From positions 1-35,407 of the forward strand of contig JASLVI010000001.1 of NCBI GenBank assembly GCA_030741455.1: DNA of 35,407 bases, read 5' to 3'. The notes beneath the pieces are model-generated. The model did not search any database. It was not told where the DNA came from and saw only the letters and a list, made by a program, of their open reading frames with translations. Source of the stretch: Candidatus Poseidoniaceae archaeon (GTDB taxonomy: Archaea > Thermoplasmatota > Poseidoniia > Poseidoniales > Poseidoniaceae). Positions 3-21,108 of the stretch are shown here, in pieces. The translations under genes were made by a program, and so were the position numbers. Positions within the stretch are counted from its first letter, which is position 1. Every line of letters starts with the position of its first letter.

Positions 3-650
3 TTCCCAAGTGACGGAACACAATGGTCCGACCAGGATGGTGATGGTTATGGTGACAACCCAACTGGTACATTCCCAGATGCGTTCCCTACCGATGGAAC
101 TCAATGGAGTGACATGGACGGTGATGGTTACGGTGACAATCCAACTGGAAACAATGCTGACCTTTGGACCAACGATAGTTCACAATGGTTCGATACCGAT
201 GGCGATGGCTATGGTGACAACCCAACTGGAACAAACGGTGATGCCTTCCCTACCGATGGGACACAATGGTCCGACCAAGATGGTGATGGCTATGGCGATA
301 ATCAAAACGGCACCAACCCTGATGCATTCCCTGCAGATGCAACCCAGTGGATAGATACCGATGGCGATGGCTATGGTGACAACCGCAATGGCAACAATGG
401 CGATCGTTTCCCAACCGATGCAACACAATGGTCGGATATTGACTCTGATGGCTACGGTGACAATCAAGCAGGAAACAATCCTGATGCATTCCCAACCGAT
501 GGAACACAATGGGAAGACGCGGATGGGGATGGATTCGGTGATAATCAAGGCGGCGCCAATGCTGACAAATTCCCGAATGATAACACGCAATGGAGCGACG
601 TTGATGGAGATGGATACGGCGATAATGCAAACGGAAACAATCCTGATTTG
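3..650 (+). repeat. In-frame tandem array of 81-bp (27-codon) units, one partial unit plus about 8 full units
   Basis: Unit boundaries read directly from the sequence at 30, 111, 192, 273, 354, 435, 516 and 597. Each unit starts with GAY-NNN-GAY-GGN-GAT-GGN-TAY-GGY-GAY-AAY. Units are clearly similar at the DNA level but are diverged copies. Confidence 0.9.
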
Positions 651-1961
651 TGTCCAAATACACCATTTGGAAAGGCTGTGGATTCAACAGGATGTTCTGA
701 GAGTCAACTCGATGATGATGGGGATGGTGTCACCAACGATCTTGACGCCTGTCCAACGACGCCCGCTGGAGATACTGTCAATTTCAATGGCTGTTCAACC
801 ACCGAATTGGATGGTGATCTCGATGGTGTCATGGATGCTTACGATGATTGTGTTTCAACACCACTTGGCCTAACCGTTGATGCAGCTGGTTGTGCAGACT
901 CTGAGAAAGATACGGACATGGATGGAATCACCGATGATATCGACCAATGTCCATTCACACCAACTGGCAGTCCTCCGAACATCTTTGGATGTTCGGCTGA
1001 ACAACGCGACCAAGACAACGATGCAGTCTCAGACAGTGACGACCTTTGTTTCAACACTCCTGAAGGAGAATCCGTCGACATCAATGGATGTGCAGAGAGC
1101 CAGAAGGATGCTGATGGCGATGGCGTGTCCGATGCCGATGATACCTGTGCAGGAACAGCCCCTCTGTCACTCGTCAATGAGAACGGTTGCAGTTCATCAC
1201 AATTGGATGATGACATGGATCTCATCTTCAATAATGAAGACGTTTGTCCAGCCACACCAGCAAATGAAGCACCAAATGCAGAAGGTTGTTCAGCAAGTCA
1301 GGTTGATGATGATGGTGATACCATATTCAACAGCAACGACCTCTGTCCAATGACCAACGTCGACCCCTCACTTGATGCAAACGGTTGTGTCTCCAGTCAG
1401 AGAGATACGGACATGGACGGGGTTTTCGATAACCGTGACGATTGTCCTGAAACAAACATGACCAGTGTTGCTGATGATGACGGTTGTGCTCTCGAGCAAA
1501 TCGATTCTGATGGAGATGGTTACAACGATCTCATTGACGCATTCCCACTCGATGTAGAGGAATGGCAAGATGACGATGGTGATGGCGTACCAAACAAGCA
1601 AGATGCATATCCTGATGATCCGACCCAAACAAAGGCACAAGATGATGGCTCAGGCGGTGGATTCCTCATCTACACACTCGTAGCAATTCTCGTTCTGGGA
1701 GCACTTGCTGGACTTGGCGTCATGCGTCGCAACAACATGATGGCTGTGGAAAAGGTCAGTCCTTTCTCGCAAGAAGCTGCAACACAAGGTGCGATGGAAA
1801 CGCAAATGCTTGAACAGGAAGATTCTACCAGCGAAGAAAGTTCTTCCAACAACAATGAATGGGAAGAGAACGGTGTTCGATGGCTACGACAAGAAGACGG
1901 TTCTCTGTTCTATCTCGATCCTCAAGCCAATCAGTGGGTTCCATTCCAACAAACCGAATGA
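3..1961 (+). CDS. Cell-surface Ca2+-binding repeat protein (thrombospondin type 3-like repeats) with a C-terminal TM anchor. The 5' end is truncated by the window edge.
   Basis: The reading frame is open from the first in-frame codon (FPSDGTQWSDQDGDGYGDN...), so the listed ATG at 114 is internal. The protein has 8 units of DxDGDGYGDN...FPxDxTQW and 8 units of DxDxDGVxDxxDxCPxTPxGxxVxxxGC. The second unit type matches the TSP3 repeat pattern of OmpA-like proteins. A TM helix FLIYTLVAILVLGALAGLGVM lies at about 1662-1724, followed by RRNN and a 77-aa tail. Confidence 0.75.
   Translation, partial: FPSDGTQWSDQDGDGYGDNPTGTFPDAFPTDGTQWSDMDGDGYGDNPTGNNADLWTNDSSQWFDTDGDGYGDNPTGTNGDAFPTDGTQWSDQDGDGYGDNQNGTNPDAFPADATQWIDTDGDGYGDNRNGNNGDRFPTDATQWSDIDSDGYGDNQAGNNPDAFPTDGTQWEDADGDGFGDNQGGANADKFPNDNTQWSDVDGDGYGDNANGNNPDLCPNTPFGKAVDSTGCSESQLDDDGDGVTNDLDACPTTPAGDTVNFNGCSTTELDGDLDGVMDAYDDCVSTPLGLTVDAAGCADSEKDTDMDGITDDIDQCPFTPTGSPPNIFGCSAEQRDQDNDAVSDSDDLCFNTPEGESVDINGCAESQKDADGDGVSDADDTCAGTAPLSLVNENGCSSSQLDDDMDLIFNNEDVCPATPANEAPNAEGCSASQVDDDGDTIFNSNDLCPMTNVDPSLDANGCVSSQRDTDMDGVFDNRDDCPETNMTSVADDDGCALEQIDSDGDGYNDLIDAFPLDVEEWQDDDGDGVPNKQDAYPDDPTQTKAQDDGSGGGFLIYTLVAILVLGALAGLGVMRRNNMMAVEKVSPFSQEAATQGAMETQMLEQEDSTSEESSSNNNEWEENGVRWLRQEDGSLFYLDPQANQWVPFQQTE
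711..1502 (+). repeat. In-frame tandem array of eight 99-bp (33-codon) Cys-pair units
   Basis: All eight units are exactly 33 codons, starting at 711, 810, 909, 1008, 1107, 1206, 1305 and 1404. Each has a DxDxDG-type acidic loop plus two Cys (CPxTP...GC). Two degenerate acidic units follow at 1503-1650. Confidence 0.9.
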
Positions 1962-2013
1962 TTGATTCACTCGAGAGGCAAGGATTTAGATTCTCCTTCA
2001 ACAAAGGTGTATC

Positions 2014-2634
2014 ATGGAGGAAGGCTTCAAGCGCGATACTTGTGCAGAAGTCGCCCTAAGTGCCATGGTAAGTATGATCATGATTCTGCTCTTTTCAGCT
2101 CTTGTCGCTGGAATGGCATTGATGATGATTGAACAAGCATTCATGGAATCACGTACTCAAAGTGTTGAACAATCTGAAACACTCAATTCAGTTCCTTTGG
2201 TGTTGGTGTTTGAAGTTGAGCAATTAGATACAACTGGAAATACAAACGATCAACTTTACTTGATGTTCAAGTTCCCGTTCGCAGGTGATACCATAGCGGA
2301 TACGAACGTTAAATGGGCTATGATGTGCGATATCAATGACACAGGGCCACCACAAACAAGTTCCGCTCATACACTTGTTTATTCAAGTGGTAACTTTGAT
2401 GTCGCAACCGATTTGAACGGAAATGCGAATGATGCTGCTTCACTTGACGAATTCAATCCACAAACATACTATCATGTCCTCATCGATTTAACAAGCCCAA
2501 ATGGCAATGGTGATTGTGATTTGGTCGAAGATATGCATGCAACCTTGGTGATTGCAGTCGAGAAAGGACGAACAGTAGAACTTGATTTCTATGTTCCAGA
2601 TGATGTTACACCTGGATATGACCTGATGAGTTGA
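2014..2634 (+). CDS. Archaellin/type IV pilin-like protein with a divergent class III signal peptide
   Basis: An AGGTG sits 5 nt upstream of the ATG. The N-terminus has a short charged leader (MEEGFKRDTCA), then a hydrophobic helix EVALSAMVSMIMILLFSALVAGMALMMIEQ, then a polar stretch ESRTQSVEQSE as in archaellins. It is a paralog of the next gene, sharing LMF..G......V.W...C and a second Cys. Confidence 0.5.
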   Translation: MEEGFKRDTCAEVALSAMVSMIMILLFSALVAGMALMMIEQAFMESRTQSVEQSETLNSVPLVLVFEVEQLDTTGNTNDQLYLMFKFPFAGDTIADTNVKWAMMCDINDTGPPQTSSAHTLVYSSGNFDVATDLNGNANDAASLDEFNPQTYYHVLIDLTSPNGNGDCDLVEDMHATLVIAVEKGRTVELDFYVPDDVTPGYDLMS

Positions 2635-2639
2635 GAGCA

Positions 2640-3257
2640 ATGGAAAAACAGAACGATACACTTGCCCAAGTTGGCATCGGTGCAATGATTGTCTTCATTG
2701 GAATCATCATTGCTGTCACATCATCGATGTATGTCATGATCAATCAACTCGAACGAATCTCCCAAGGTGCAGAAGAAGCGGTTTCAGTAGCAACAAATGA
2801 AGCGCATACACAAGTGATTTTTGTTGGAGGATGGGTTGACGATGAGTATGATGATTTCCTATTGATGTTTGAGTATCAGAGCCTAGGTAAAAACGTACAA
2901 ACCGATGAGGTTGCTTGGGTTTTGTGGTGTGAATTTAACGGCGAGATTTTTAGAAGAATGGGTTACATGGGGGACCAAGTTTTCTCTGCACCCATCGGGA
3001 CGGACGGAGAAAGGACGACAATATGGGAAGTTGGCGCAGAGATTCTAAAACCAGATGAATTAATCTCAGGAAAGCGCTACTTCGTCATCGCAGATGGAGG
3101 AACTGGTACAGATAGTGGGAACGGTGCATTTTGTGGCCCTGAATGGATTTTTGATCGAGGTGTTACCGCCTATTATTCGATTTACCTCCCTGATGGTGGG
3201 CACACCACGCAAGAATTGCGCGTGAATGTGTTCGAGGTTGGTCAATCGGTCACTTGA
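2640..3257 (+). CDS. flaB: Archaellin (FlaB/ArlB family)-like protein
   Basis: The N-terminus MEKQNDTLAQVGIGAMIVFIGIIIAVTSSMYVMINQ matches the archaellin signature ..GQVGIGTLIVFIAMVLVAA..LINT. Its size of about 205 aa is typical. An alternative TTG start at 2631 would overlap the upstream stop (TTGA). Confidence 0.62.
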   Translation: MEKQNDTLAQVGIGAMIVFIGIIIAVTSSMYVMINQLERISQGAEEAVSVATNEAHTQVIFVGGWVDDEYDDFLLMFEYQSLGKNVQTDEVAWVLWCEFNGEIFRRMGYMGDQVFSAPIGTDGERTTIWEVGAEILKPDELISGKRYFVIADGGTGTDSGNGAFCGPEWIFDRGVTAYYSIYLPDGGHTTQELRVNVFEVGQSVT

Positions 3258-3278
3258 ACCCCATATTGGTGTGAAAGT

Positions 3279-3716
3279 ATGATGAACGACGATTCAGTTT
3301 CCGAGCCAGAGAAGCCTCCCTCCTCAGTGGTCATATCGGTTCCTTTGGTTCAGAAAGATTCTGAACAAAGGAGTATTCAACAGCAACCTGAAGTCATTCT
3401 GATCCAAGCACCGAAGTTCAATCATCCCGCTCGAACAATAAGTTCGATTGTAACGTTCCTTGCGATCTTTGTTTTCTTAATCTCATTCTTCAGCTTTGGT
3501 TCATCCTCAGGAGGATTCTCGCACCTGGAATTTGGTTTCCAAAGTTGTTGCTTTTTGTTCAATGTTGCATTCATACTGGAAATTGTCTATTATGGAAATC
3601 TGATAACACACAACAATACCTATGGTGAAGACAACACTTGGCCAACACTCAACCTTTTCCTTGCGTTGGTGTTGGCAGGGATAGGATTGTTGATTTTCCT
3701 AACGAATTTCTTCTAA
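3279..3716 (+). CDS. Small integral membrane protein of unknown function (about 3 TM helices)
   Basis: A 145-aa ORF with a hydrophilic 50-aa N-terminus. It has three hydrophobic segments (ISSIVTFLAIFVFLISFF, CCFLFNVAFILEIVYY, LNLFLALVLAGIGLLIFL). I recognise no family. Confidence 0.45.
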   Translation: MMNDDSVSEPEKPPSSVVISVPLVQKDSEQRSIQQQPEVILIQAPKFNHPARTISSIVTFLAIFVFLISFFSFGSSSGGFSHLEFGFQSCCFLFNVAFILEIVYYGNLITHNNTYGEDNTWPTLNLFLALVLAGIGLLIFLTNFF

Positions 3717-8564: not shown

Positions 8565-9017
8565 ATGAGCGAGTGGAAGCGTCTAGCCTTAACGGAAGAC
8601 AAGGAAGAGAAGCCAGAGGAAGGGGATTTCTCCTCAGCACCTCAATTGTTGCATCAAGAATTCCATGAAGAAGCACATCATTTGCACGAGGTACGGGCGA
8701 TGCATACCCATGTTCTCGTACAAGCAGGAATGCTTCCTGAAACCCATCTTGCAGAGGTTGACCCTTCTCAGCGGTTAGATTGGATCTTGCAAGAATTGCA
8801 TGGTATGCGTGATCCAGATGGCCTCACCATCCCATTGAAAGGTGTTTCATTCGAAGATGTTGAAGTCAACATCATGAGCAATGATTCAGAGACCAGCATA
8901 AAACTCACAATCCATGAGAACGGACATCAGCCGTTTGAACGCGTCCTCCCCCTCATGGGAGAAGATCTTGACGTTCAGGCTCATTTTGTCAATGGCCAAC
9001 TACGTCTTCGATGGTGA
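8565..9017 (+). CDS. Hypothetical protein with a His-rich N-terminal segment and a possible alpha-crystallin (Hsp20)-like C-terminal domain
   Basis: A strong SD, AGGAGGAG, sits 6 nt upstream. The segment HQEFHEEAHHLHEVRAMHTH has 7 His in 20 aa. The C-terminus LTIPLKGVSFEDVEVNI....IKLTI.....PFERVLPL...LDVQAHFVNGQLRLRW follows the ACD pattern (..ED+.V.+..L.I....F.R...LP.......A.+.NG.L.+). Confidence 0.4.
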   Translation: MSEWKRLALTEDKEEKPEEGDFSSAPQLLHQEFHEEAHHLHEVRAMHTHVLVQAGMLPETHLAEVDPSQRLDWILQELHGMRDPDGLTIPLKGVSFEDVEVNIMSNDSETSIKLTIHENGHQPFERVLPLMGEDLDVQAHFVNGQLRLRW

Positions 9018-9021
9018 GTCC

Positions 9022-12000
9022 TCAGTATTTCTTGTAACTGAGTTCCGTGATCATCTTGTCCAATGCTCCTTGTGCGGATTGTTGGTGTGATGGTCCCAAT
9101 TCTTCACGGCTATATCGAGCCATTTCGAACATGTTATCCAATGATTCGAGAGCTTCATCACTGATACCAGGAGTTGCTTGACGAATCGCTACTTCGAATT
9201 CACGAACCGTCTCAAAGTCACGTCGGAGGAGACCGCGCGTCTGCAATGTCGAACAAAGATTTTGATAACAGTTGAAGATGGATTCACGGATTGCATCACC
9301 AGCAGCAAGAAGTTCAGCAGTGTATTCGAAGACTTCCGTCATCTCTGAAAGCAACTCATTTTGTCGGTTCCGCCGATACATGACTGTTCCAAGAGCAACC
9401 GCAGCAGCAATGAAGATTAACGCAACATAGGTCCATGGACTGACTTCAGAAGCTTCTGCTTCAAATTCATATTCGGGTGCAAAACCAGCATCTCGTACAC
9501 TATCAAATTCAGCAATTGTGCGATCGGAGAGTCGTGGGTCATTGATGATGATCTTGAGACTTACTCGTCCATATTCCGAGTAATCACCGTACTGAGTTCC
9601 GTCCCTGTTAAACGCGAAATCAACAACACCATTTTCATCTGTCGAGTATTGTTTGCCTTCGCCAAGTTGAGAGCCATTTCCAGCATACAGATAGACTTGA
9701 ACAATAATTCCGGGAAGGCCTGTTTTGCTATCTTCAGCAATGATTGTAACTTGTCCATCTACATTCTCATCTACATTTTCTTCAATTGCATCAATTTCAA
9801 CCTCAATATCTGCATTCACCTTGATGTACACTACATGTGCTTGCGAAGCGCCATTGGTGTAGAGAGCAGTATCACGTGGAACATCAAGACTGATGAACCG
9901 AGCACCAGGTTGCATCGTTTCCGGTGAGACTGCATCAATTGAGAAGTTGCCAACGTCCCAGTCAACAGTAACTCGCTCGAAACAAACCGCTCCTTCGAAA
10001 TTGTTGATGCAATTGGAACCATTTCCAACATAGACGACGAGGTTTTCAAAGACCTCGCCAATACCGCCTACCTCTGCAACACTACCCGTCAATCGAATCG
10101 GGTTGGTTTCATCAGAACGTACAGTTTCAGGAGATGAGGTTGAATCAATGGTGATGACAATGTCCGCCCAAACCGTCACCGTACCATCTGCAAGTGTGCT
10201 GAGATGCTCCTGTGTACCTTCAAACACGACCTGGATGGTATGGCCATTTCCTCGTTCGAGATCCATTTGAGCATAGACTTGGCCTTCGAAGGTTCCATCG
10301 CTTGCCGTAGTGAGTGTCTCAATGTAGACGCCATCGAGATAAACAAGCACGTTCTCACCTGCAATTCCATCCTGATCAACTGTATCAATGTCATAGAGAC
10401 GTCCTTGGAAGGTCCAGAAGTCTCCTCGAGTAGCATCAGTACCATCATTGAATTCAAGTGTCATAGCAGAACGATGTGCAAGGAAGAAGGTCTGATTTGC
10501 AGACCCTTCTCGATAATAGCCTTGAGCAATGGAATTCGCTTCGAGCAAGTTATCACCGAAGTTAAACAAATCTTGGACCGTCCATTCATAGGAATAGGTT
10601 CCATCTGCACCGGTTGTGACCTGAGCGAGAACAAATCCATCGACCTTAAGTTCTACAATATGTCCCTCGATTGGTTGTAATTGGTTGTCAAGTACGCTTC
10701 CAGTAATGGTCGTCGTATCCGTAACTGCAAGAGGTGATGGAATCGAAACAGAGACCAAGATTTGGCTGAAAACAGTCCATGTTCCACTCGCTTCACTCGG
10801 CAGGTAAAACACGGTTCCATTGAATTTCGTATCCAATGAAACTGGACCTAGAGCTGCATCTGCAGGAACGGGTATAACCGCTGTAAACAAACCAGTTTCA
10901 TCGGTTGAAACATTGGTCATCCAAATTCCATTGAGGTAGATATCAATGCTTTGTTCAAACAATGGGTTATCGACAACATCCAACAGTCGACCTTGAACAG
11001 TCATTGTCTCCTCACGGTTGACTTCGCCAGTTGGTGTGATCAAGAGGATTTGTGTTGGAACACTTACATTGAAATCAACGCTTGCACTGCTCGGCAAGTA
11101 AAATTCTGGATCAACAGAATCACCAATTCCAACAGGATCAACCCAATCTCTGCCGCCTGTAAATCGAACTTCAACCATGTGTGCGCCAGAAGTGGTAGAT
11201 TCAGGGACCGAGTAGGAGATGGAATATGCACCCGTGAGTGCATCGCTCTGCACGCTTGCAACCGGCACGCCATCAATGAACAGGCGAACGATGGCAACAG
11301 ATGGAACACCATCAACGTACAAGGGCATACCGAGATCGTCGAGTAGCGTTCCATTCACGTAGATCATTTCTCCTGCGACAAGTGATTCTGTGTGCTCGAG
11401 AATGGTCATATTTGTTTCAGCAAGCGTCACAAATTCTGTCGAAGTATTGTACCCAGAAACACCTGTTGTCCCACTGATTCCATCGTAAGAGACGAGTACA
11501 TCGCTGAACCCAATCGATGCGTTGAACGGAACCAGAAGACTTGCGTTTGCAGTTCCATTCGCAAACGTATTCACTGAAACAGACACTTCATCGGTCGAGT
11601 TCGTAGCAGGTAATGAGAACGTTACTTGTTGCCCAGCAAGGGGTTGGCCCAAGTTATCTTCAAGCCTGATTCGAACATCGAGCATGGTGCCACGCTCTGT
11701 ACGATCGTTCAACGAAGGTTGGCCGAGTGAATCCAAGGATGGTTTCAAGAACGTAATCACAGAGAAGCCACGACTGTCAAAGGTTGAGTTGTTCTTTGAA
11801 CCAATGTAGAAGTTCACTGTTGGCACAAGCGATGCTTCCAAAACGTGCGAGCCTCGCTCAAAGCCTGGTGTGAGCGTGATAACTGCTGTCCAGAAGCCAC
11901 CTGATTGAACGGAACCGTTGCTTACTGCAAATCCAGTCGGAAGGTCATTGATTGTAAACAGAACATTGGAAATCAATGTTGAGCCATCACGGTTCTCGAG

Positions 12001-15000
12001 GCCACTTCCATTATCGGAAACAACACGTCCAGAGACGTTGAAACTCGATCCTGCAACTGGATTTTCTGTGATTTGGTCTACGACCATGAAGGTAAGCGAG
12101 CGTACAGTTACACTGCTGAGGTTCGCTTGTGTAGGTAGAAGGTCTGAACTTCCATTGTAGTAATAACTCACAACAATCAAACCGAGTGGATGCGTAAATG
12201 GAACGGTGAACGATGTGTTCGCAGTTCCTGAACCATCTGTTGTGACAGATGGTAACCACGTTTCATGGAATTTCGTCGTCACCTCTCGGCTACCAAGCGG
12301 TTGGAAATTGAAACTCGATTCGACCAATGTCGCACTCAAATTAACCGTTTCACCACGATTGATCAGAACCGGATTTCCAGGTTGTAATCCTTCAAGTTGC
12401 GTCACACCAAAGACAAAGATTGCAGAGGAGACGTTGGATGGTAGATAATACGGAGAGGAATCTTCCAGTACTTCGACAACCAGTGTTCGTGGTCCACGAA
12501 CCGTTCCGTTGTTGGATGTATCCGTTGGTACTGTGAGGTTGAAACTACCATTCGAGAGTGTTGGAACTCCAGAACGTAGAAGTTCTTCTGGGTTGGATTG
12601 CCAATAGACGTCAAGACGCACACCAGAAATCAAAGATCTGGCAGGATCATCATTGTCAAGGATTTGCCCCTGCATGTTGAATGGAACACCCGCTGTAATG
12701 GTCGATGGCAATACATCGATTCGAATATCGGTCGGAACTTGGACCGTGACGTCAACAAACGTACTGTTGCCAGTTCGGCGACTGTTGCCGATAGCAAGCG
12801 GGTCCGTTAAATCATCAACGACCAACATCTGAAGAACATAGTCACCTGGTGCAAGCGTGGACGTAGCCCATGTGAATGTAGCATTGCCTTCCGCATCCGT
12901 CACTGCAGTACCGAGCGATTGGTTTGAATTACCATAATCCCAGATGTATTCGACGGTCACATCAGAAATGTTCGATTTATCTGCAACATCAAACACGGTA
13001 GTGTTGAATAACACCTGATCACCCGAAACAAACTCTATCGCACTCCGTTCTTCTTCAAGAAGGAATTCAGATTCAATTCCAATCGTCAAACTTGGTAAGA
13101 CAGGCGGATTCGGTGGCGTTGATGAATCAACAACACGATAGTATGATCCACCTGGTGGAGCCATTGCTTCAAAGTTAAAGTCAACGTTCACTTGGTATCC
13201 ATTCGATGGAAGTGTTGTCGGCATAACAACCGAGAGGTTGAACGCACCTGTTGCATTATCGAGCATACCATTGGCGAGATCGATTGGGAAACCATCTGCA
13301 TCAAGCATGATCATCGAAATGACCGTATCGTTACCTAACACGGCTTCATTTGTGTACTGAGCATCGAATATATCTCCAACGATGTAAGTCATGTTTCCGA
13401 GATGTGTCCAATCTTGTAGTACGGTCAAATTCCAACCAATCTCAGCTTGGACTCGTATCGATTCTGATGCAGTACCTGGCTGGTACAAATCTGAACCGTT
13501 GTATTGGATATCAAACACATAGTCGTTTGGCCGAAGGCTTGAATCAAGTTGCCATGACAACGTAATCAGCGATGAATCCGGATCTGATGTTGTGTTCACC
13601 CATCTATTATTGAAAGTGAATGAATAATCACCTGGAACTGCTAAGCCGACTTCAACACCCATATGATCTGAAATTTGGACGAGGATATTGGTTGGTTCAC
13701 CTCTCAGCTGAGGTGTTGCAATCACTTCGAAATTGAGTATACCAACCAGAGCAAACGGATCACCCGTGCTTAGGTTTGCATCATCTGTAGATTCGTAGAG
13801 ATCAGGATAGAATCGCAAACGTACCTCAAGGATACCTGCAGCAACGTTGACATCGGTCGCATTGAGGAAGTGTTGAACACTGAACGCACCGTTGACGGAG
13901 ACATTGAAAATTTCAGTCCACTCGCCTCCGCTGTTGTTTTCTCGCATCGAGAATGAGAGGTTTCCAGACATACCAACCGGAGATGCCCCGATTGTGAGCG
14001 CAGTTCCATTGACCCAAATATCATCGTTGAGAAGGAGAAGACTCGAGTTTACACCAGGGCCTTCAAGTGTAGCGGTCAGGTTTGGTGCATCACGAATGTC
14101 CAGCGTGAAGGATTTCTGAACTGGACGAAGATGATGCGTTGGACCTGTGATTCCATCCTCAGTTTGCAACCAACCGTCGTAACCGAGTGTAGCGCTGACG
14201 TTGGTTTTGGTCTCTAACTCATCCAACGTAAGTTCGAAGGACCACGTCCCTGATGGACTGACCTGGGTTGTCAAGTTTTGTGCACCATCAACAGAGGACG
14301 TAAACGAAAGCCAAACCGTTGAATTGACAACCAACGAAGCATCGACGAATGGTTGTTGCTCATATCCAATGAATCCCTCAATGGTCGTTGTTGCACCTGC
14401 TCCAACGATTGGTGCATCGATGGCACCGGGCGATGTGTGGTTGAGTGTTGCATCATCTGTGACGTTCATCCACCATGAATTCGCAGGACCTGCAACGGTT
14501 GAGTTCGCAGTGAGTATTGTTTGGCCTGAAACATATCCTTTCTGCTCGACTTCGATCATGATGGCGCCAAATCCTGGTTCGATCATTTCGACAGGAGCAC
14601 CTTCGATGGTAAAGAACCCGTTCGAATCGGTCACGTTGACCTCAAGAAGGCGTTCTGGCGTGTTCAATCCACCCACACCATCGAATGCAGGAACCAATGG
14701 AACAAGATATGCACGCACAATGTGTTGTTCGATTGCAGTTTGGTTTTCAAGGAAAACAAGATTTCCGCTGATGGTGACATTCCCATCCGAACCATCTCGG
14801 TCGAAATTCGTCGGAGAGTAGAGGACATTACGGACATCGAGTTCCGCCGCATCTGGACATGGGTCAAATGGAACCCAGCCAAAGTCCAATCCGCCTGCTG
14901 AAGATGATTGTTGAATTCGGACTTCAGCCCAAGTTCGGAGATGCTGAGCACCTACTGCGTAACCATTTCCAGTCCAGTCACCGCCCTTGAATCCGCTCAC

Positions 15001-17979
15001 CAATCGAGCAGGCAGGCCGATGACACGTGCCATTGTCACGTACGTTGTTGCGAATTCAGCGCATGTACCTTCATTCGCTACTTCAAGCATGAACTGTGCC
15101 AAGTCTTCACCGTCGACAAGTCCAGAACCATCGAAGTTAAGCTTGTATTCTGTGCTCGCATTTCCGTCTTTCAGATAGGTTTGCAAAGCAAGTGCCTGAT
15201 CGTAGGCATTGACGGCAGATGCGTCATTAATGACAGCACTTGTAATGTTGAATACAACAGAGCGAGAATCGCTCAGATCAGTGTAATAGGACGGCAGAGC
15301 CGTCTCATATGGGAAGCCTTGTCCGGCAATACTTGTACTTGCGAGAGTACTCCAATCGAAATAATACTCTGGCTGTTGAACAACGATCTCTTCGACAAAT
15401 CCTCCTTCAACTTCGTATCGATGCGTGTCGTTGGTTCTCGAGAGAACGACCGCAGAATCCGCCCAGAAAGAGACATTCGTCGTCGAGGCAGGAAGGGGTA
15501 ACGCTCCTTCACCAACAGGGAAATTGTAACTGATTTGCCACGTGATTGTATCGTTCGCGAAACTTGTACTTGCCATGTGTGTGAGATTCGTAAATGGAGG
15601 TATGACCTCCTCACCGGGATGAACTGCATTGTCGTGCGTGTATGAATTCCCAGTTGGAATATCATTGGTGTATTTTCGCCAGTACTTTTCGATGTCGAGA
15701 TCGACAACACCCGTTGTATTGTTCGCCCAGAAGATGACATCGTTTTGAGGAAGATCATCGGTCGGATCGAACAAATTGAACGGAGCACCTACACAATTGA
15801 AGAACCAAAATTGCTGAGGACATTCTGCACCATCGAGCATTCCCCCACCATCGGTATCGGGATTACGCCAATCTGAACCCGTAGCGTTCTCAACTGCATC
15901 AGGAATGCCATCATTATCAAAATCGTCAGGAAGAATATCGTCAGAAGGATCATTTTCTGGATTTGTACTATCGAAGTATTCGGTTCGATCGTCAACTCCT
16001 CCGCTATCTGTGTCGACCGACTGATAGTCCGTGACCCAAATGTCGGTCGAACCGTTGGTAATTCCAATGAAAGCAAGGTTGCAACCCGTTGTATTCTCAA
16101 AGTAGGAGTTGATTCCATCACCATCTGGATCAAGGGTATTGAAACATGGCTCAGTTGGATCTGTGTTGTCAAACACTTCGTCGTAATCGTTGACACCATC
16201 ACCATCGGTATCTGCTAGTGTAGGGTTGGAAAACCATCCATAGGTGCCGAGCAGTTCCTCCCAGTTTGCCAAACCATCACCATCGCTGTCCGTGAAGTCA
16301 TCGTCACAGTACGTACGTGTTGTTCCAATCGTACCATCCTGGTTTGCTGCAGTATGACAGAATGAACCGTTTCTGCTCTCGATGGACGTTGGAGTTCCAC
16401 TCGGTGAGGGATTGACCCCAAGCAATGCATTGCTGGTCAAAGATATCGCAAGATACGTGAACGTTGTATAAGTCCCTGAATTGTTGTAGTACCCAACTCC
16501 ACCACTTGGATTGAATCCACTTGCATCGGCAAGGAAGAGTTGGTTTGCTGTACTAAAGGAAACAAATGTGGTTGCAAAATTGACCAATGAATCACACGGA
16601 TCTGTCCCATGGCTAACGTTTCGCTCGTCGCCATCGTTTACTCCGCCAAAGTCAGTATCTGCGACATTCCATTCTGTGCAAGTAAGATTCTCTTCCCAAT
16701 TTTGAATTCCGTCGTTGTCTTCATCACCTGAGTCTTCTCTACGCGTTGGATCCGTTTCACCAGGATCGACGAGGCCGTTTCCATTCGCATCTTCATCACC
16801 ATCGTCGAACGCATCGCCATCCGTATTGTTGTCACGCGGGTCTGATGCTTGTGCAGGGTTTCCATATGCTCCGTTGATCTCGATGCCATCAGGAATTCCA
16901 TCGCTATCTGTATCCGAACTTGTTGGATCTGTCAACAACGTCAACGCCTCGTAGGAATCGTTCAAGCCGTCATTGTCGGTGTCACTGTCTTGTGGGTTTG
17001 TTGAAGTAATGCCGTCGACTTCTGCGGTAAGTGTAGCACATGCACCAGGACCAATGCCTTGTACAGGGTCACATGGAGATACTGTTTCAGTAGGGACTCC
17101 GTCTGGGCCAGGGCGGAAACAAGGAACTCCACCGCAGTTCGTAGTCCATGAAGGGTTCACATATTCCATGAGGTTGATCAATCCATCTCCGTCGGGGTCA
17201 CCATTTGCTCCATCAGCATTTGATGCACTTGTTGCATTGAGACCGTTTGCAGCTTCCCAACCGTCAGGCATTCCATCGCCATCGGTATCCCATCCATTCG
17301 GGTCTTCATCGGAAACACCATCGCCATCGTCATCGTTTGATGAACAATCTGCATCGCCATCATTGTCGGAATCTGAACCGTCAACCTGTCCATCTTTGTC
17401 ATCGTCAAATCCATTCGCACAGACGTTTCCTACAGGGTCCTCATCGCAGAGGATGGTGTTGCCTTGACCATCACTCCCAGTATCACCACAGAGTGGTTGG
17501 TTAAATTGCATGGAATCTTCTTCGTTCCAATCGTTAACAGGAATGGTCCCGTTCCACCAAACACCGTTGTCCAAAACACCAGTAGTAGCAGGATTGTCCC
17601 AATTTGAGGGTTGAAGGTAGGAATATTCCTGGAGATTTGACATTCCATCACCATCAGGATCGCCAACGGCTCCATCTCCACCTGTTGCAGACAATGGGTC
17701 AAGACCGTACTTCCACTCCCAACCATCTGGAAGACCGTCATTGTCAGAATCCCAATCGGTTGCTGCCGTATTGATGAGATATTCGAGACCATATGTTAGC
17801 CCATCACCATCCAAATCGGATGCCGCACTCACCTCTTCAGTGACAAAATCGATTGCCGTTAGTGTTGAAAGAACCATTAAGGCAACCAAAAAGATAGACT
17901 GCGCAACAGTTCGCCGTTGTGAACGGTCGAGTTTCATTGCGCCAGAAGGACCAACTTTCAGCGTTTCCGCATCAATCAT
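9022..17979 (-). CDS. Giant (2985 aa) membrane-anchored surface protein. Domain order is N-terminal TM, TSP3-like Ca-binding repeats, transglutaminase-like Cys-His-Asp core, a long Ig-like/carboxypeptidase-regulatory-like beta-sandwich array, C-terminal TM, and a DUF4129-like tail.
   Basis: The 8958-nt ORF is uninterrupted. The N-terminal anchor is RRTVAQSIFLVALMVLSTLTAIDFV. At least 14 DxDxDGxxDxxE units (e.g. DSDNDGLPDGWE, DTDGDGVNDYDE) span about 15820-17817. The core reads EGTCAEFATTYVTMARVIGLPARLVSGF...AQHLRTWAEV...GWVPFDPCP. There are many modules of the type GxxxDxxGxPxxGxxV......TDxxGxF. The TM helix is WTYVALIFIAAAVALGTVMY followed by RRNR. The tail has ...TVREFE...LDNMFEMARYSREEL, typical of DUF4129. 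Confidence 0.88.
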   Translation of the reverse strand: MIDAETLKVGPSGAMKLDRSQRRTVAQSIFLVALMVLSTLTAIDFVTEEVSAASDLDGDGLTYGLEYLINTAATDWDSDNDGLPDGWEWKYGLDPLSATGGDGAVGDPDGDGMSNLQEYSYLQPSNWDNPATTGVLDNGVWWNGTIPVNDWNEEDSMQFNQPLCGDTGSDGQGNTILCDEDPVGNVCANGFDDDKDGQVDGSDSDNDGDADCSSNDDDGDGVSDEDPNGWDTDGDGMPDGWEAANGLNATSASNADGANGDPDGDGLINLMEYVNPSWTTNCGGVPCFRPGPDGVPTETVSPCDPVQGIGPGACATLTAEVDGITSTNPQDSDTDNDGLNDSYEALTLLTDPTSSDTDSDGIPDGIEINGAYGNPAQASDPRDNNTDGDAFDDGDEDANGNGLVDPGETDPTRREDSGDEDNDGIQNWEENLTCTEWNVADTDFGGVNDGDERNVSHGTDPCDSLVNFATTFVSFSTANQLFLADASGFNPSGGVGYYNNSGTYTTFTYLAISLTSNALLGVNPSPSGTPTSIESRNGSFCHTAANQDGTIGTTRTYCDDDFTDSDGDGLANWEELLGTYGWFSNPTLADTDGDGVNDYDEVFDNTDPTEPCFNTLDPDGDGINSYFENTTGCNLAFIGITNGSTDIWVTDYQSVDTDSGGVDDRTEYFDSTNPENDPSDDILPDDFDNDGIPDAVENATGSDWRNPDTDGGGMLDGAECPQQFWFFNCVGAPFNLFDPTDDLPQNDVIFWANNTTGVVDLDIEKYWRKYTNDIPTGNSYTHDNAVHPGEEVIPPFTNLTHMASTSFANDTITWQISYNFPVGEGALPLPASTTNVSFWADSAVVLSRTNDTHRYEVEGGFVEEIVVQQPEYYFDWSTLASTSIAGQGFPYETALPSYYTDLSDSRSVVFNITSAVINDASAVNAYDQALALQTYLKDGNASTEYKLNFDGSGLVDGEDLAQFMLEVANEGTCAEFATTYVTMARVIGLPARLVSGFKGGDWTGNGYAVGAQHLRTWAEVRIQQSSSAGGLDFGWVPFDPCPDAAELDVRNVLYSPTNFDRDGSDGNVTISGNLVFLENQTAIEQHIVRAYLVPLVPAFDGVGGLNTPERLLEVNVTDSNGFFTIEGAPVEMIEPGFGAIMIEVEQKGYVSGQTILTANSTVAGPANSWWMNVTDDATLNHTSPGAIDAPIVGAGATTTIEGFIGYEQQPFVDASLVVNSTVWLSFTSSVDGAQNLTTQVSPSGTWSFELTLDELETKTNVSATLGYDGWLQTEDGITGPTHHLRPVQKSFTLDIRDAPNLTATLEGPGVNSSLLLLNDDIWVNGTALTIGASPVGMSGNLSFSMRENNSGGEWTEIFNVSVNGAFSVQHFLNATDVNVAAGILEVRLRFYPDLYESTDDANLSTGDPFALVGILNFEVIATPQLRGEPTNILVQISDHMGVEVGLAVPGDYSFTFNNRWVNTTSDPDSSLITLSWQLDSSLRPNDYVFDIQYNGSDLYQPGTASESIRVQAEIGWNLTVLQDWTHLGNMTYIVGDIFDAQYTNEAVLGNDTVISMIMLDADGFPIDLANGMLDNATGAFNLSVVMPTTLPSNGYQVNVDFNFEAMAPPGGSYYRVVDSSTPPNPPVLPSLTIGIESEFLLEEERSAIEFVSGDQVLFNTTVFDVADKSNISDVTVEYIWDYGNSNQSLGTAVTDAEGNATFTWATSTLAPGDYVLQMLVVDDLTDPLAIGNSRRTGNSTFVDVTVQVPTDIRIDVLPSTITAGVPFNMQGQILDNDDPARSLISGVRLDVYWQSNPEELLRSGVPTLSNGSFNLTVPTDTSNNGTVRGPRTLVVEVLEDSSPYYLPSNVSSAIFVFGVTQLEGLQPGNPVLINRGETVNLSATLVESSFNFQPLGSREVTTKFHETWLPSVTTDGSGTANTSFTVPFTHPLGLIVVSYYYNGSSDLLPTQANLSSVTVRSLTFMVVDQITENPVAGSSFNVSGRVVSDNGSGLENRDGSTLISNVLFTINDLPTGFAVSNGSVQSGGFWTAVITLTPGFERGSHVLEASLVPTVNFYIGSKNNSTFDSRGFSVITFLKPSLDSLGQPSLNDRTERGTMLDVRIRLEDNLGQPLAGQQVTFSLPATNSTDEVSVSVNTFANGTANASLLVPFNASIGFSDVLVSYDGISGTTGVSGYNTSTEFVTLAETNMTILEHTESLVAGEMIYVNGTLLDDLGMPLYVDGVPSVAIVRLFIDGVPVASVQSDALTGAYSISYSVPESTTSGAHMVEVRFTGGRDWVDPVGIGDSVDPEFYLPSSASVDFNVSVPTQILLITPTGEVNREETMTVQGRLLDVVDNPLFEQSIDIYLNGIWMTNVSTDETGLFTAVIPVPADAALGPVSLDTKFNGTVFYLPSEASGTWTVFSQILVSVSIPSPLAVTDTTTITGSVLDNQLQPIEGHIVELKVDGFVLAQVTTGADGTYSYEWTVQDLFNFGDNLLEANSIAQGYYREGSANQTFFLAHRSAMTLEFNDGTDATRGDFWTFQGRLYDIDTVDQDGIAGENVLVYLDGVYIETLTTASDGTFEGQVYAQMDLERGNGHTIQVVFEGTQEHLSTLADGTVTVWADIVITIDSTSSPETVRSDETNPIRLTGSVAEVGGIGEVFENLVVYVGNGSNCINNFEGAVCFERVTVDWDVGNFSIDAVSPETMQPGARFISLDVPRDTALYTNGASQAHVVYIKVNADIEVEIDAIEENVDENVDGQVTIIAEDSKTGLPGIIVQVYLYAGNGSQLGEGKQYSTDENGVVDFAFNRDGTQYGDYSEYGRVSLKIIINDPRLSDRTIAEFDSVRDAGFAPEYEFEAEASEVSPWTYVALIFIAAAVALGTVMYRRNRQNELLSEMTEVFEYTAELLAAGDAIRESIFNCYQNLCSTLQTRGLLRRDFETVREFEVAIRQATPGISDEALESLDNMFEMARYSREELGPSHQQSAQGALDKMITELSYKKY

Positions 17980-18033
17980 GGTTTATGCTCGTCCCAATAG
18001 CACATAAGGGAAATGGTGCGTTGTTCATACAAA

Positions 18034-20946
18034 CTAGGATTCATCATCGGTGGATTCGATATCAATAAGTTCCAATTCAATGTCGTCAAATTCCTCTTCT
18101 TCAGGCTCTTCTGGAGCCATCTCAGTCTCCTCAACACCTTCACTCTCAAGAACTTCATGCGTCGAAGGGTCAACCATCGCAGCAAACATTTGAGCCTTCA
18201 TCTTGTTTTGGCCACGACGATACAATCCAAATCCAGCGAGAACAAGAACAGAGAGGAATAATACAATCGTCGTAGGTTCTGGATCTTCGATTTCACTCAT
18301 AATCGAGTTGAGAAGTCCGGAACTATCGGTCTTAAACTCAAAGGTTGGCTTTTGGATGTAACAGAGACTATCGGTACACTCTTGGTAATTTGTAGGCGTC
18401 ACAGTGAGTTCAAACTCAACGATTTGGCCGCTCTTGACCTTCTCAGGAGCGGTGATTTGCATTGTGAAATCTTCGGATGAAAAGGCATCGAGAGTGAAGG
18501 AGATAATCTCTCCAGAATCAAGTGTAGCATCCCATTCAGCAGGCGCATTTACAGAGATAACAACATCGACTTCAACGTTGTTGAGGTTGTCAATTCGATA
18601 TTCGACATCGATGGTCTGGCCTGATGCGATACGACTGGTTTGAGACTTCTGCTCTACGACGAGGTTACCAGGAACGACTTCTTCAGCGACTTCGATTGTG
18701 AGTGGAAGATCGAAATATCGGGGCACCTCATCACCATCAGGTTCCTCCGCAACTTGAAGATACACTACATGTTTACCTGCCTCAACTTGCTGTCGAATCG
18801 TAACCTCAACTTCAACGTCAATGTACTGCCCACCAGCGAGCGGAGCTACAAGCACAATGTTCCCTTCAATGTCCGTAATTTCATACAACCAAGTTGCATA
18901 GGCAGGATCGTTGTCAATGTTGCGCTGCAAAGCTGCTGGATTCTTGATGACCCAATTTGTCGAGCCTGCATCAAGTGTCGAATCGGTAATTCGCACGTTG
19001 TATGTAACCGTCGAGCCCGGTGCAACAGGACCAATTTGGCCGAGCACACCCCCGTCGGAATCTGAGATGACTTCTCCAACAATTCCGTATGTTCGGTGAA
19101 CAGTCCATACGACAGGGGTGGTGAAGACCTCATCAACACTGTTGTCAGAGGTGACGCTTAGTCGGACAAGAGAAATATCGTCCGCTTCTCTATCTGATGG
19201 AGGATAGGCCTCAACCTTGATGATGAGTTTCTCTCCTTGACCAATGATGGGTGTCAAAGCGTCAACACCTTGCTCAACAAGTTCAGATCCTGTTCCATTG
19301 ACGAGGAACTTCAACGTCCATCCAGGCTCAATTTCTTGGATTCGAATTCGATAACTATCATCATCAAAACCAACGTTGCTGATGCTGAGATAGAAATCAC
19401 CTACTTTGTCATAATCAACGTAATGTGAGAGATTTTCATTGTACAACTCAGGTCGATCTGATGCAAAGATTTGCTTTTGTTGCTCGACATCATCATACAC
19501 ATCGATTTGAGGTGGCCCAAATTGATTGACCTTCTCAACATTCACTGGAATCGACACCTTACGGACTTGTGAGCCACTATCGGCACCACTTGTCGAGAAA
19601 GCGTACGCCTCGATGATGATTTGGTAATTATCATTGATGGTGCTGAGGTCTTCAGGCGCTTGTACGGTAAGGAGTGGATTGACACTCGATCCACCTCCAC
19701 TAAGCGTATATCCTCCCGGGCTGTCCCAATTAGGATCCGACCAACCTGCAGGTAAAGATTGTTGAAGTTCCATCTCGATACGAAGTTCTGAAGCTACTGA
19801 CCCCGTGTGGAGGACGGCGAATTCAACGGAGGATGTCTGTCCGGGAGCAACAAGCAACTTTGGAATCTGATTAACTGGGAATTCGATGAAGATATCATGT
19901 TCAAGGAACGTAATTCCTTGTGGATGATTGTATGTGACCTCATTCCCTTGCACATCCGTAATCGTAAGGTTCAATGGATATTCACCTGAATTAATTCCAG
20001 ATTCGTAGACAAAGGTTGTGTTTCCAACCAACCCTTCGTTATCGAGTTTGAGTTCATTGTTTTCAAACTCATGATTAAACGCTGGAGATTGAATGTTCGG
20101 TTTGTCGATATTAATTGAAACTGATTCGATATCACTGCGGCCGAACGCATCTCGAACATCAACCGTTAGTTGTATTTTCCTTTGCTCTACTCGATGCGTA
20201 GGAGACCATTCTGTCTTTTCAGTTTCGCTCCAACCATCGCCGACTTCATGGATTCTGACTTGGGAACCTGCGAGCGCATTCGCTCGAAGTTCAATCATGG
20301 AAAACCCATTCGCAACTTTTCCAGCATATGCAAGTTCGAGAGAACACGAACCAAACGGGTTACTTCCGCCAGATTCACATGATGCATCTGCGCTTACCTC
20401 GAGACGAAGGCTGTCACCATCTTCAACGAGAATACTTGCATCACCCAAATCGAGATCAAAGCGGTATGAGGAAAAACCACAGTTGCTGAGAAATCCTCCA
20501 CAAGGGTCCGTCAATTGTTCCGTCATTGTAGCAACAACCGATGATCCTGAGAAGAGTGTGAATGTTACATCTGCTGTTGAACTGTTATCTGAGCTCTGAA
20601 ATTTCATGAACGCTGTAACTTTCACAATCTGTCCCGACTTGCCTTTCACCGTAAGATCGGAGAGTAATTCATTGGTTGGAAATTCAAGGCCCGCACCAAG
20701 TACACTTGCGACCACTTCGCTACCAGCCGGTTCGATTGTTGTTATGAAATCAACAGGTTGGTTGTTAACACTTTTTTGATCCAGGTACAACTCATAATCA
20801 ACAAATCCACCCGATGAAGACATGGGTTGTGAAATCTCTTCAAGCACAACTGGAGGAGGATTTTCAATTGGTATTACAGCCAGAAAGAGCGCGATGAGTA
20901 CTGCGAATACAACGGGCTTTGAAGACATGGTCATGACATCCCTCAT
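18034..20946 (-). CDS. Large secreted, C-terminally anchored surface protein (970 aa) with repeated beta-sandwich (CARDB/NEW3-like) modules. Possibly an S-layer or envelope component; function unknown.
   Basis: The signal peptide is MSSKPVVFAVLIALFLAVIPIE; in-frame alternative ATG starts are at 20934 and 20928. Repeated segments end in ..P.GW.. or ..PAEWD.. (LPAGWSDPNW, EPGWTLKF, NAPAEWDATL). The C-terminal TM is TTIVLFLSVLVLAGFGLY, followed by RRGQ and an acidic 61-aa tail. It lies 54 nt upstream of the giant gene on the same strand. Confidence 0.65.
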   Translation of the reverse strand: MRDVMTMSSKPVVFAVLIALFLAVIPIENPPPVVLEEISQPMSSSGGFVDYELYLDQKSVNNQPVDFITTIEPAGSEVVASVLGAGLEFPTNELLSDLTVKGKSGQIVKVTAFMKFQSSDNSSTADVTFTLFSGSSVVATMTEQLTDPCGGFLSNCGFSSYRFDLDLGDASILVEDGDSLRLEVSADASCESGGSNPFGSCSLELAYAGKVANGFSMIELRANALAGSQVRIHEVGDGWSETEKTEWSPTHRVEQRKIQLTVDVRDAFGRSDIESVSINIDKPNIQSPAFNHEFENNELKLDNEGLVGNTTFVYESGINSGEYPLNLTITDVQGNEVTYNHPQGITFLEHDIFIEFPVNQIPKLLVAPGQTSSVEFAVLHTGSVASELRIEMELQQSLPAGWSDPNWDSPGGYTLSGGGSSVNPLLTVQAPEDLSTINDNYQIIIEAYAFSTSGADSGSQVRKVSIPVNVEKVNQFGPPQIDVYDDVEQQKQIFASDRPELYNENLSHYVDYDKVGDFYLSISNVGFDDDSYRIRIQEIEPGWTLKFLVNGTGSELVEQGVDALTPIIGQGEKLIIKVEAYPPSDREADDISLVRLSVTSDNSVDEVFTTPVVWTVHRTYGIVGEVISDSDGGVLGQIGPVAPGSTVTYNVRITDSTLDAGSTNWVIKNPAALQRNIDNDPAYATWLYEITDIEGNIVLVAPLAGGQYIDVEVEVTIRQQVEAGKHVVYLQVAEEPDGDEVPRYFDLPLTIEVAEEVVPGNLVVEQKSQTSRIASGQTIDVEYRIDNLNNVEVDVVISVNAPAEWDATLDSGEIISFTLDAFSSEDFTMQITAPEKVKSGQIVEFELTVTPTNYQECTDSLCYIQKPTFEFKTDSSGLLNSIMSEIEDPEPTTIVLFLSVLVLAGFGLYRRGQNKMKAQMFAAMVDPSTHEVLESEGVEETEMAPEEPEEEEFDDIELELIDIESTDDES

Positions 20947-21021
20947 AACACCCGAAGAGAGCAGGCGTTAAACGGTTTTGCATGATTTGTGCGAACAAAT
21001 TGCGTTCCTTCACAAGTTTAT

Positions 21022-21108
21022 TGGTATCGAGGGAGGGATTTGAACCCTCGAACCCATCTGGGACCGGATCTTAAGCCCGGCGCCTTTGACCACCTCAGCC
21101 ACCTCGAT
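21022..21108 (-). tRNA. tRNA-Leu (anticodon UAA), type II with a long variable arm and genomically encoded CCA
   Basis: The reverse complement folds as a cloverleaf. The acceptor is ATCGAGG/CCTCGAT. The 3-bp D stem is GCT/GGC. The anticodon stem is CCGGG/TCCGG with loop CTTAAGA (UAA). The variable arm is TCCC-AGAT-GGG-TTC. The T arm is GAGGG-TTCAAAT-CCCTC, followed by discriminator A and CCA. From memory it is near-identical in architecture to haloarchaeal tRNA-Leu. Confidence 0.92.

Follow-up and report, generated by a model that had tools for sequence, protein, structure and literature searches.

Conserved adjacency of a giant TgpA-like protein with a lost catalytic histidine and a beta-sandwich protein in Poseidoniales

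Archaea of Marine Group II (order Poseidoniales) are the most abundant planktonic archaea of surface oceans, uncultured and with an undescribed envelope (PMC6461757). Here we analyse a stretch of 35,407 nucleotides (nt) from a metagenome-assembled genome (MAG) of Candidatus Poseidoniaceae (Marine Group IIa), namely positions 1 to 35,407 of contig JASLVI010000001.1 in assembly GCA_030741455.1, to which we will refer as the window. Two genes on its minus strand account for 33.5% of this length: the first (9022-17979) encodes a protein of 2985 amino acids (aa), in the following called the giant, and the second (18034-20946), lying upstream of it, a protein of 970 aa in its longest open reading frame (ORF) or 966 aa as annotated, in the following called up970. 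Both ORFs are intact and translate without stops, and a random open frame of 2985 codons would have a probability of ~1e-69 at the base composition of the window. The spacer between them (17980-18033) measures 54 nt, and its longest T run is TTT. ORF calls and translations thereby bear out what the original prediction, made from the bare sequence, had described: two huge minus-strand ORFs that fill one third of the window and are separated by a 54-nt spacer devoid of an oligo-T tract. That prediction had further seen in the giant the skeleton of a TgpA-like membrane transglutaminase, plausibly co-transcribed with up970, and had put forward the hypothesis of an envelope-remodelling or adhesion enzyme with up970 as its substrate, scaffold or surface-layer (S-layer) partner.

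The giant is built of four parts, as had been proposed, and Pfam and internal profiles agree on calcium-binding repeats, a transglutaminase core, an immunoglobulin (Ig)-like array and a DUF4129 tail (all features of the two genes lie on the minus strand). An N-terminal hydrophobic segment (aa 24-48; 17836-17910), which is predicted to be a Sec signal peptide or signal anchor, precedes a region of thrombospondin type-3 (TSP3) repeats (aa 55-740; 15760-17817) with TSP3_bac and partial CglD and MtsD matches and, within aa 55-700, 15 copies of the DxDxDG motif. It is followed by a TgpA-like ectodomain module (aa 741-1060; 14800-15759), identified by profile comparison with the PDB and including a 'YWR..D.YTG' pre-core motif, in which Transglut_core (PF01841) spans aa 924-1040 (14860-15210) at E 4e-14 and 53.2 bits, the cut-off being 23. 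The following stalk (aa 1061-2845; 9445-14799) comprises ~16-17 divergent beta-sandwich modules of Ig, macroglobulin (MG) or Big-like type: Pfam Big, MG, SpaA and Invasin matches lie below threshold and scatter over aa 1660-2800, and internal profile searches of aa 1100-2830 resolve ~16-17 modules with a period of ~105 aa, the best E between modules being ~1e-10. A C-terminal transmembrane (TM) helix (aa 2848-2870; 9370-9438), present in all orthologs and followed by the basic stretch YRRNRQ, leads to a putatively cytoplasmic tail (aa 2871-2985; 9025-9369) with DUF4129 (PF13559; aa 2904-2973, 9061-9270; 27.7 bits against 24.8), whose motif in the orthologs reads LAxGD..R..I..CY...G.LRR.FETVREFE.

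Kyte-Doolittle hydropathy was the sole basis for the topology of both proteins; it recovers the N-terminal and C-terminal membrane segments that had been suggested for each. In the orthologs, the N-terminus of the giant consists of a basic n-region, a hydrophobic core of ~16 residues and an A-x-A-S-[TS] motif right before the first DxDGDG repeat, and its hydrophobic segment may therefore be a cleaved signal peptide rather than a second anchor, in which case the giant would be of type I, its head lying distally. No polytopic N-terminal domain (DUF3488/TgpA_N, five to six helices) was found in the giant, which has a single hydrophobic segment and no PF11992 match at E up to 0.01. An alpha-2-macroglobulin or thioester protein was considered and rejected: the giant has no CxEQ motif and no Cys in aa 1042-2656, and MG2, MG4 and bMG3 remain below their cut-offs.

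By sequence, the closest solved structure to the transglutaminase module is the periplasmic domain of Pseudomonas aeruginosa TgpA (6g49; E 8e-4 with the single sequence, 4e-8 with the family profile). The closest canonical relative tested is a haloarchaeal TgpA-domain protein (Salinibaculum sp. KK48, WP_302083834.1, 1011 aa; profile E 4e-23). Against the giant-family profile, haloarchaeal TgpA matches the pre-core motif (E 1.5e-5) as well as the core (E 5e-19), so that the giant holds the whole TgpA ectodomain and not the core alone. These matches, together with the succession of a TM helix and DUF4129, confirm the TgpA-like skeleton. TgpA itself (P. aeruginosa PA2873; 'DUF3488 and DUF4129 domain-containing transglutaminase family protein') shares with the giant the pre-core YWR motif, Transglut_core, the TM helix and DUF4129. 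Unlike the giant, however, it has only 668-683 aa, a polytopic DUF3488 N-terminus, a complete catalytic triad and a moxR-DUF58 operon, whereas the giant is 4.4 times longer (several-fold larger, as anticipated), has one N-terminal segment and carries in addition ~690 aa of TSP3 repeats and ~1800 aa of sandwiches. Likewise, the Salinibaculum protein differs in keeping His and Asp (NAHAWVEV, FDPT), in being one third as long and in the presence of a DUF58 gene at the second place downstream. That no MoxR or DUF58 partner is present had been noted earlier for the window, and none was found in the 10-kb flanks of related loci either; the control tgpA loci have them (moxR-hypothetical-tgpA in Ralstonia, TgpA...DUF58 in the haloarchaeon). 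Since three of five testable features of TgpA proteins fail (triad, polytopic N-terminus, MoxR/DUF58 neighbours), we regard the giant as TgpA-derived and as set apart from the TgpA family proper.

The triad columns were read in 62 non-redundant complete giant orthologs and, separately, in that of the deep lineage L114 (63 in all). Cys973 (15061-15063), which aligns with C314 of Factor XIII and with the catalytic Cys of TgpA, is invariant in 62/62 orthologs and in L114. In transglutaminase-fold enzymes the catalytic His stands two residues before a Trp (H-x-W-x-E). According to the ortholog column and the TgpA controls, this position, two residues before the invariant Trp1017, is occupied in the giant by Arg1015 (14935-14937); among the 62 orthologs it holds Thr in 31, Arg in 16, Ser in 10, Ala in three, and Asp and Lys in one each, and in L114 Ala. 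At the Asp site (residue 1039), Glu (35 orthologs) and Asp (21) predominate over Gln (4), Asn (1) and Lys (1), L114 having Asn, and none of the His within aa 741-1100 is invariant among the 62 orthologs. As positive controls, an annotated Ralstonia tgpA and the haloarchaeal TgpA-domain gene were aligned to the giant-family profile. Both retain the full Cys-His-Asp triad (Ralstonia GFCEHYAG...DAHAWAEV...VDPT; haloarchaeal GYCEYFAS...NAHAWVEV...FDPT), and the His of both controls falls in the Thr/Arg column of the giant. Cys and His of the TgpA fragment are 44 residues apart, in agreement with the C404/H448 numbering of TgpA.

A second invariant Cys, Cys1041 (14857-14859), lies two residues past the Asp site in the ortholog alignment, at a place that we take to correspond to Thr360, next to the active site, in TG2. 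All extracellular Cys in the giant form consecutive pairs, the two members of which are present or absent together (164/178, 282/287, 2657/2666), 973/1041 being an invariant pair, and six pairs in the TSP3 region are conserved or co-vary. From this pattern we infer a Cys973-Cys1041 disulfide, which would keep the site structurally and disable it catalytically.

Several observations can be cited in favour of an active extracellular enzyme (transglutaminase, cysteine protease or deamidase) that would cross-link or trim proteins of the envelope, up970 being its substrate or scaffold: Transglut_core scores above threshold, Cys973 is invariant, and the TgpA ectodomain TG180-544 has transglutaminase activity in vitro (PMC3507681). 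Moreover, a His is found four residues before or after Trp1017 (aa 1013 or 1021; 14941-14943 and 14917-14919) in 62/62 orthologs, complementary between clades, and could, together with Cys973, belong to a non-canonical or shifted active site. This His pattern could, on the other hand, be a matter of chance. Neither position is conserved between clades, and the one four residues after Trp1017 belongs to the aromatic core in canonical TgpA. Furthermore, none of the 63 orthologs has the canonical His and the residue at the Asp site varies, whereas the TgpA controls keep both, and Cys973 has in Cys1041 an invariant partner of disulfide-like pattern. The distribution of invariant positions also speaks against an enzyme: they make up 36% of the TSP3 region, 25% of the cytoplasmic DUF4129 tail, 10% of the transglutaminase core, 10% of the stalk and 4% of the pre-core region, although in an enzyme the catalytic domain would be expected to be the best conserved, whereas here it is the calcium-binding head and the cytoplasmic tail, and the core is conserved no better than the stalk. 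Of the enzymatic interpretation originally offered, the homology to Transglut_core and DUF4129 is thus real, but the activity drawn from it is not supported, and the giant is probably non-catalytic.

The giant is further distinguished by its potential glycosylation sites. Its orthologs contain 71-95 N-x-S/T sequons each (median 84; 62 orthologs), 2.6 times the expected number, with 56 against 20 expected in the stalk of the giant and 8 against 3 in the transglutaminase module; in up970 they are not enriched (0.88 times expected). Judging from these motifs, the giant is probably heavily N-glycosylated. A membrane anchor combined with dense sequons is a feature of archaeal S-layer glycoproteins, and of the two proteins the giant alone displays it. 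Archaeal stalked and two-gene S-layers (Staphylothermus tetrabrachion; SlaA/SlaB of Sulfolobales) likewise involve long N-glycosylated, C-terminally anchored proteins and adjacent genes for an anchor or stalk and for a canopy, although their stalks are coiled coils whereas that of the giant is an array of beta-sandwiches; no relationship to them in sequence or fold emerged, no dedicated comparison having been made.

For up970, an exhaustive HMMER search of 1.84 billion representative proteins retrieved 124 relatives. About a dozen of them are full-length (953-988 aa), with 23-43% identity and a star-like relationship, and all named relatives come from Poseidoniales, 'Euryarchaeota' or Thermoplasmatota MAGs, apart from a few mis-binned bacterial ones. 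Because the relatives are few, of similar length and from Poseidoniales, up970 constitutes a lineage-restricted family of constant length. The pair-bearing contigs L008 and L025 and that of protein P0277 belong to MAGs that bear the labels Rhodobiaceae, Salipiger bermudensis and Deltaproteobacteria, probably through contamination of these bins with Marine Group II DNA. The protein begins with a hydrophobic segment (aa 10-27; 20866-20919) and ends, after an ectodomain of ~8 tandem beta-sandwich domains (aa 46-885; 18292-20811), in a C-terminal TM helix (aa 890-912; 18211-18279), both segments being found by hydropathy and helical in an AlphaFold2 model. Behind the helix follows an acidic, putatively cytoplasmic tail (18037-18210; net charge -20) with the motif [YF]-[DE]-D-D-D-[IV]-E-L-[VI] in all lineages examined, including L114. 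The model, computed from a diverse alignment of 13 sequences (mean predicted local distance difference test, pLDDT, 79), is all-beta, with about eight sandwiches and then the TM helix, as expected of the beta-sandwich surface protein that had been postulated; an earlier model from a shallow alignment (70-92% identity) reached a pLDDT of 47 and was unusable. Foldseek comparison of the model with the PDB yielded generic multi-sandwich proteins only (TM-score 0.10-0.18), namely MG, Ig and ASH strings such as alpha-2-macroglobulin and complement, hydin-like ciliary proteins and PrgB. Neither the model nor Foldseek revealed a catalytic fold, and sequence and profile searches of the PDB with up970 gave no match. 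The last, membrane-proximal sandwich (aa 768-850; 18397-18645) is the sole Pfam-recognisable domain and is of the NPCBM_assoc/CARDB type (PF10633; in the window protein 26.3 bits, with a cut-off of 24.4). Of 13 family members, eight carry PF10633, the best E being 7e-10, FixG_C, DUF11 and CARDB match as well, and up970 thus displays the COG1470/NPCBM_assoc-CARDB feature of a sandwich beside a membrane anchor; indeed, NCBI names one cluster member 'COG1470 family protein'.

The giant and up970 are alike in their predicted topology, and the cytoplasmic tail of each is conserved. Charge complementarity of these tails was considered and discarded, as both are acidic (net -8 in the giant and -20 in up970). 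Shorter up970 paralogs of ~750 aa (P0187, P0219, P0222) also occur in Poseidoniales, and the one examined has no transglutaminase partner, for which reason a functional pairing as a general trait of the up970 fold was rejected. A RimK-like ATP-grasp gene and an integrase flank this paralog (contig L113, 10001-12280), and S8 peptidases with TSP3 repeats are encoded nearby.

The conservation of the gene pair was studied in 23 loci from GTDB species representatives, three loci anchored on fragments of the transglutaminase region, 80 metagenome loci and L114. The GTDB scan employed very specific peptide patterns and captured relatives at >=56% identity only, and the metagenome loci were retrieved with a four-sequence sub-alignment of a deep-branching up970 subfamily, a profile from 11 distant up970 relatives having returned the cluster of its first sequence only. 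A homolog search with the transglutaminase region of the giant gave 14 short fragments and no full-length giants, and the orthologs were taken from the loci instead. A giant of the TSP3-transglutaminase-Ig-DUF4129 type directly follows up970 in every locus with enough downstream DNA (>100 loci). The synteny of the pair, whose lack had been named at the outset as a refutation of the pairing, thus holds in related genomes down to 27-30% identity of up970; complete giants at such loci measure 2951-3003 aa, though they are 39-45% identical to that of the window. The giant is single-copy at a fixed locus in every lineage sampled.

In 99 loci the junction between up970 and the giant is ~0-91 nt long and never interrupted. 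The junction between the SDR gene and up970, by contrast, ranges from 196 to 2211 nt, may hold a tRNA gene on either strand, includes extra ORFs in L028 and L031, and in L114 has received a 6.8-kb insertion of six genes. Because the former junction is unbroken while the latter tolerates insertions, the pair appears to be a constrained unit, for which the evidence is moderate and not decisive. A tRNA sits at the SDR-up970 junction in most lineages, and on the opposite strand in deep clades. The genes inserted in L114 (3199-8756; on a 3.0-Mb contig) encode Aminotran_5, an unknown protein, GATase_6, Methyltransf_33, an FGE-sulfatase and a short ORF, a set that resembles ergothioneine-biosynthesis genes.

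The spacer contains a conserved non-coding block of 31 nt (18000-18030, minus strand), which occurs once per locus and in this spacer only. In the window it reads GTATGAACAACGCACCATTTCCCTTATGTGC, elsewhere its consensus is GTCCGAACGACGCTCCATTCCTCTTAAGACC. It is composed of an imperfect palindrome, GAACG-A-CGCTC, and, 12 nt later, CTTATG or CTTAAG, 23 nt before the ATG of the giant. The block is kept in all Poseidoniales lineages (L001-L114, including the most distant, L032 and L114), in which the flanking proteins are 27-45% identical. Other genes of the window that lead a unit have a similar YTTAWN box 20-30 nt in front of them (up970 TTTAAC, XPD TTTAGA, SDR ATATAT, GDH CTTAAG). That of up970 is part of a TATA-like element (CCGTTTAACGCC; 20964-20975, minus strand), of which GAAC[GT]CTTTAAC is kept ~20-35 nt upstream of up970 in other lineages. 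The GenBank start of up970 is Met5 (20934, minus strand; 966 aa), the longest ORF beginning at 20946, and this annotated start is favoured because the box at 20967-20972 fits a transcript that begins between the two ATGs.

The most economical reading of the 31-nt block is that it probably combines a TATA box with an adjacent transcription-factor site and serves as a dedicated promoter of the giant. A structured RNA was rejected as an alternative, as an Rfam search of the spacer returned no family above threshold, only sub-threshold C/D-box noise that is probably explained by Asp codons (GATGATGA), and as no RNAalifold consensus structure emerged from 91 distinct spacers. The co-transcription envisaged at the outset is compatible with a short spacer free of oligo-T, but it is not secure, for the spacer holds a conserved TATA-like block at promoter distance from the giant; transcription of both genes from the up970 promoter is possible, though not implied by the shortness of the spacer. 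In one clade only (L033, L035-L038, L040-L042, L045, L046) a perfect 8-bp hairpin, GACCCTCC-NNN-GGAGGGTC, directly follows the up970 stop and precedes the conserved block; it could be a transcript-end or stability element.

We tentatively favour, at rather less than firm confidence, a reading in which the giant is a TgpA-derived structural or binding protein that forms, together with its beta-sandwich partner up970, a membrane-anchored scaffold of the Poseidoniales envelope or surface coat, possibly with a part in calcium-dependent adhesion. The pair would be ancient, vertically inherited and specific to Poseidoniales (Marine Group II). The giant would descend from a TgpA-type ancestor, of which it kept the ectodomain fold, the TM helix and DUF4129, having lost the His, usually the Asp, and the MoxR/DUF58 context, and would have gained the thrombospondin-like calcium-binding region and a fixed stalk of unique glycosylated sandwiches. 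Its head would consist of the Ca2+-loaded, disulfide-stapled TSP3 region and the disabled transglutaminase-fold module, its stalk of a fixed-length array of 16-17 non-identical, heavily N-glycosylated beta-sandwiches; the C-terminal helix would anchor it, with the DUF4129 tail contacting a cytoplasmic partner. up970, a shorter, non-glycosylated chain of ~8 sandwiches anchored likewise, would stand beside it as proximal partner, and both together would form a constitutive scaffold of the envelope or surface coat. A structural role is favoured because the length of the giant is constant, its modules are individually conserved, its sequons are dense, and it occurs as a single copy at a fixed locus in every sampled lineage.

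Several points weigh against this scaffold, in addition to the invariant Cys973 and the alternative His described above. The envelope role is one that we infer, the topology is a prediction from hydropathy, and to use a protein of ~3000 aa as the bulk subunit of an S-layer would come at a very high cost. Each of the two genes has its own promoter-like box, up970 and the giant evolve at different rates, and a ~750-aa paralog of up970 lacks a transglutaminase neighbour. Finally, gene order is preserved throughout the Poseidoniales over the whole ~20-kb block (E1a-LipA-SDR > up970 > giant < small ORF < XPD), which renders the adjacency of the pair only moderately informative.

These last points lend themselves to an account in which the two genes are functionally independent and held together by the general collinearity of the block, an unlikely explanation in our view, which concerns the pairing and is weighed separately from the function of the giant. 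It is in keeping with the retention of E1a-LipA-SDR upstream and XPD downstream in the same loci, with the separate TATA-like boxes, with the hairpin behind the up970 stop in some lineages, with the up970 paralog, and with the difference between the two proteins in both sequon signature and evolutionary rate. It does not account for the contrast between the two junctions, that of the pair being unbroken in ~100 loci while the one next to SDR took up tRNAs and insertions of up to 6.8 kb, nor for the shared strand, predicted topology and lineage restriction of the two genes.

As to function, a rival to the scaffold, and a less likely one, is that the giant is mainly a calcium-dependent adhesin to particles, phytoplankton or other cells, with up970 as an accessory. 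TSP3 repeats and long Ig-like arrays are typical of adhesins, the NCBIfam models of the Myxococcus proteins CglD and MtsD match the giant in part, and Rinke et al. interpreted the 'thrombospondin genes' that are widespread in Poseidoniales as adhesion genes (PMC6461757). Like the giant, thrombospondin type-3 proteins (the eukaryotic TSP signature domain, and Myxococcus CglD and MtsD) have DxDxDGxxDxxE repeats with conserved Cys pairs; the NCBIfam scores, however, are far below the equivalog cut-offs (60 against 400 and 35 against 800), and the repeats alone are shared. Known giant adhesins, moreover, vary in repeat number and are patchily distributed, whereas the giant has constant length and unique modules and is single-copy in every lineage, and its strongly conserved cytoplasmic DUF4129 tail would be left unexplained. 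A repeat-expansion adhesin of the Bap, LapA or SiiE type was rejected for the same reason: since the modules differ from each other and the length is fixed across the order (2951-3003 aa), the giant has a defined architecture. Weakest of all is the active envelope-modifying enzyme, which the loss of the canonical His in every ortholog makes improbable.

As to other known systems, the bifidobacterial PFNA cluster (pkb2-fn3-MoxR-DUF58-tgm) also encodes an FN3 surface protein together with a membrane TgpA-like protein (PMC8430577). It differs from the present pair in including a Ser/Thr kinase, MoxR and DUF58, in having an FN3 protein unrelated to up970, and in being bacterial and host-associated; no PFNA-type kinase, MoxR or DUF58 gene occurs in the window or in the flanks of related loci. 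Our literature searches found neither a paper linking Poseidoniales or Marine Group II with transglutaminase-like proteins nor functional work on DUF4129.

Among its neighbours, the window contains genes for an XPD helicase, a 150-aa ORF, tRNA-Leu, SDR, lipoyl synthase, a 2-oxoacid dehydrogenase complex and haem biosynthesis. The tRNA-Leu(UAA) gene (21022-21108, minus strand) lies immediately upstream of up970. The ~150-aa ORF (8565-9017, plus strand), just downstream of XPD and convergent with the giant, has no Pfam match; its position is kept order-wide, with a gap between giant and XPD of 467-626 nt in 64 loci, and its sequence is barely detectable across loci (25-30% identity in a few). 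A second cluster of surface proteins (114-3716, plus strand) comprises a protein of 615 aa that carries TSP_3 repeats and, after it, ORFs of 206, 208 (with an archaeal flagellin- or pilin-like N-terminus) and 145 aa.

For the biology of the order, the giant and up970, as a single-copy, order-wide and lineage-restricted pair, are targets for metaproteomics, for cell sorting by antibodies or fluorescence in situ hybridisation, for cryo-electron tomography and for virus-receptor studies. The giant also provides a clear natural case of a TgpA/DUF4129 protein that lacks the catalytic His and the MoxR/DUF58 partners and is still under strong purifying selection, which bears on non-catalytic roles of the DUF4129 tail and of the transglutaminase fold, while the 31-nt element stands as a rare candidate for a cis-regulatory site in an order of archaea that has no cultured members. 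In a bolder version, which we consider speculative and rather improbable on present sequence data, the pair would be the core of an undescribed archaeal envelope, with the ~3000-aa glycoprotein as principal coat of the Poseidoniales, a Ca-loaded, thrombospondin-like head that includes a TgpA-derived pseudo-transglutaminase, a ruler-like stalk of 16-17 unique beta-sandwiches, coupling to the cytoplasm through DUF4129, a lineage-specific beta-sandwich anchor protein, and the 31-nt block as promoter or operator. If this were true, the giant would be the obvious receptor candidate for viruses of these archaea.

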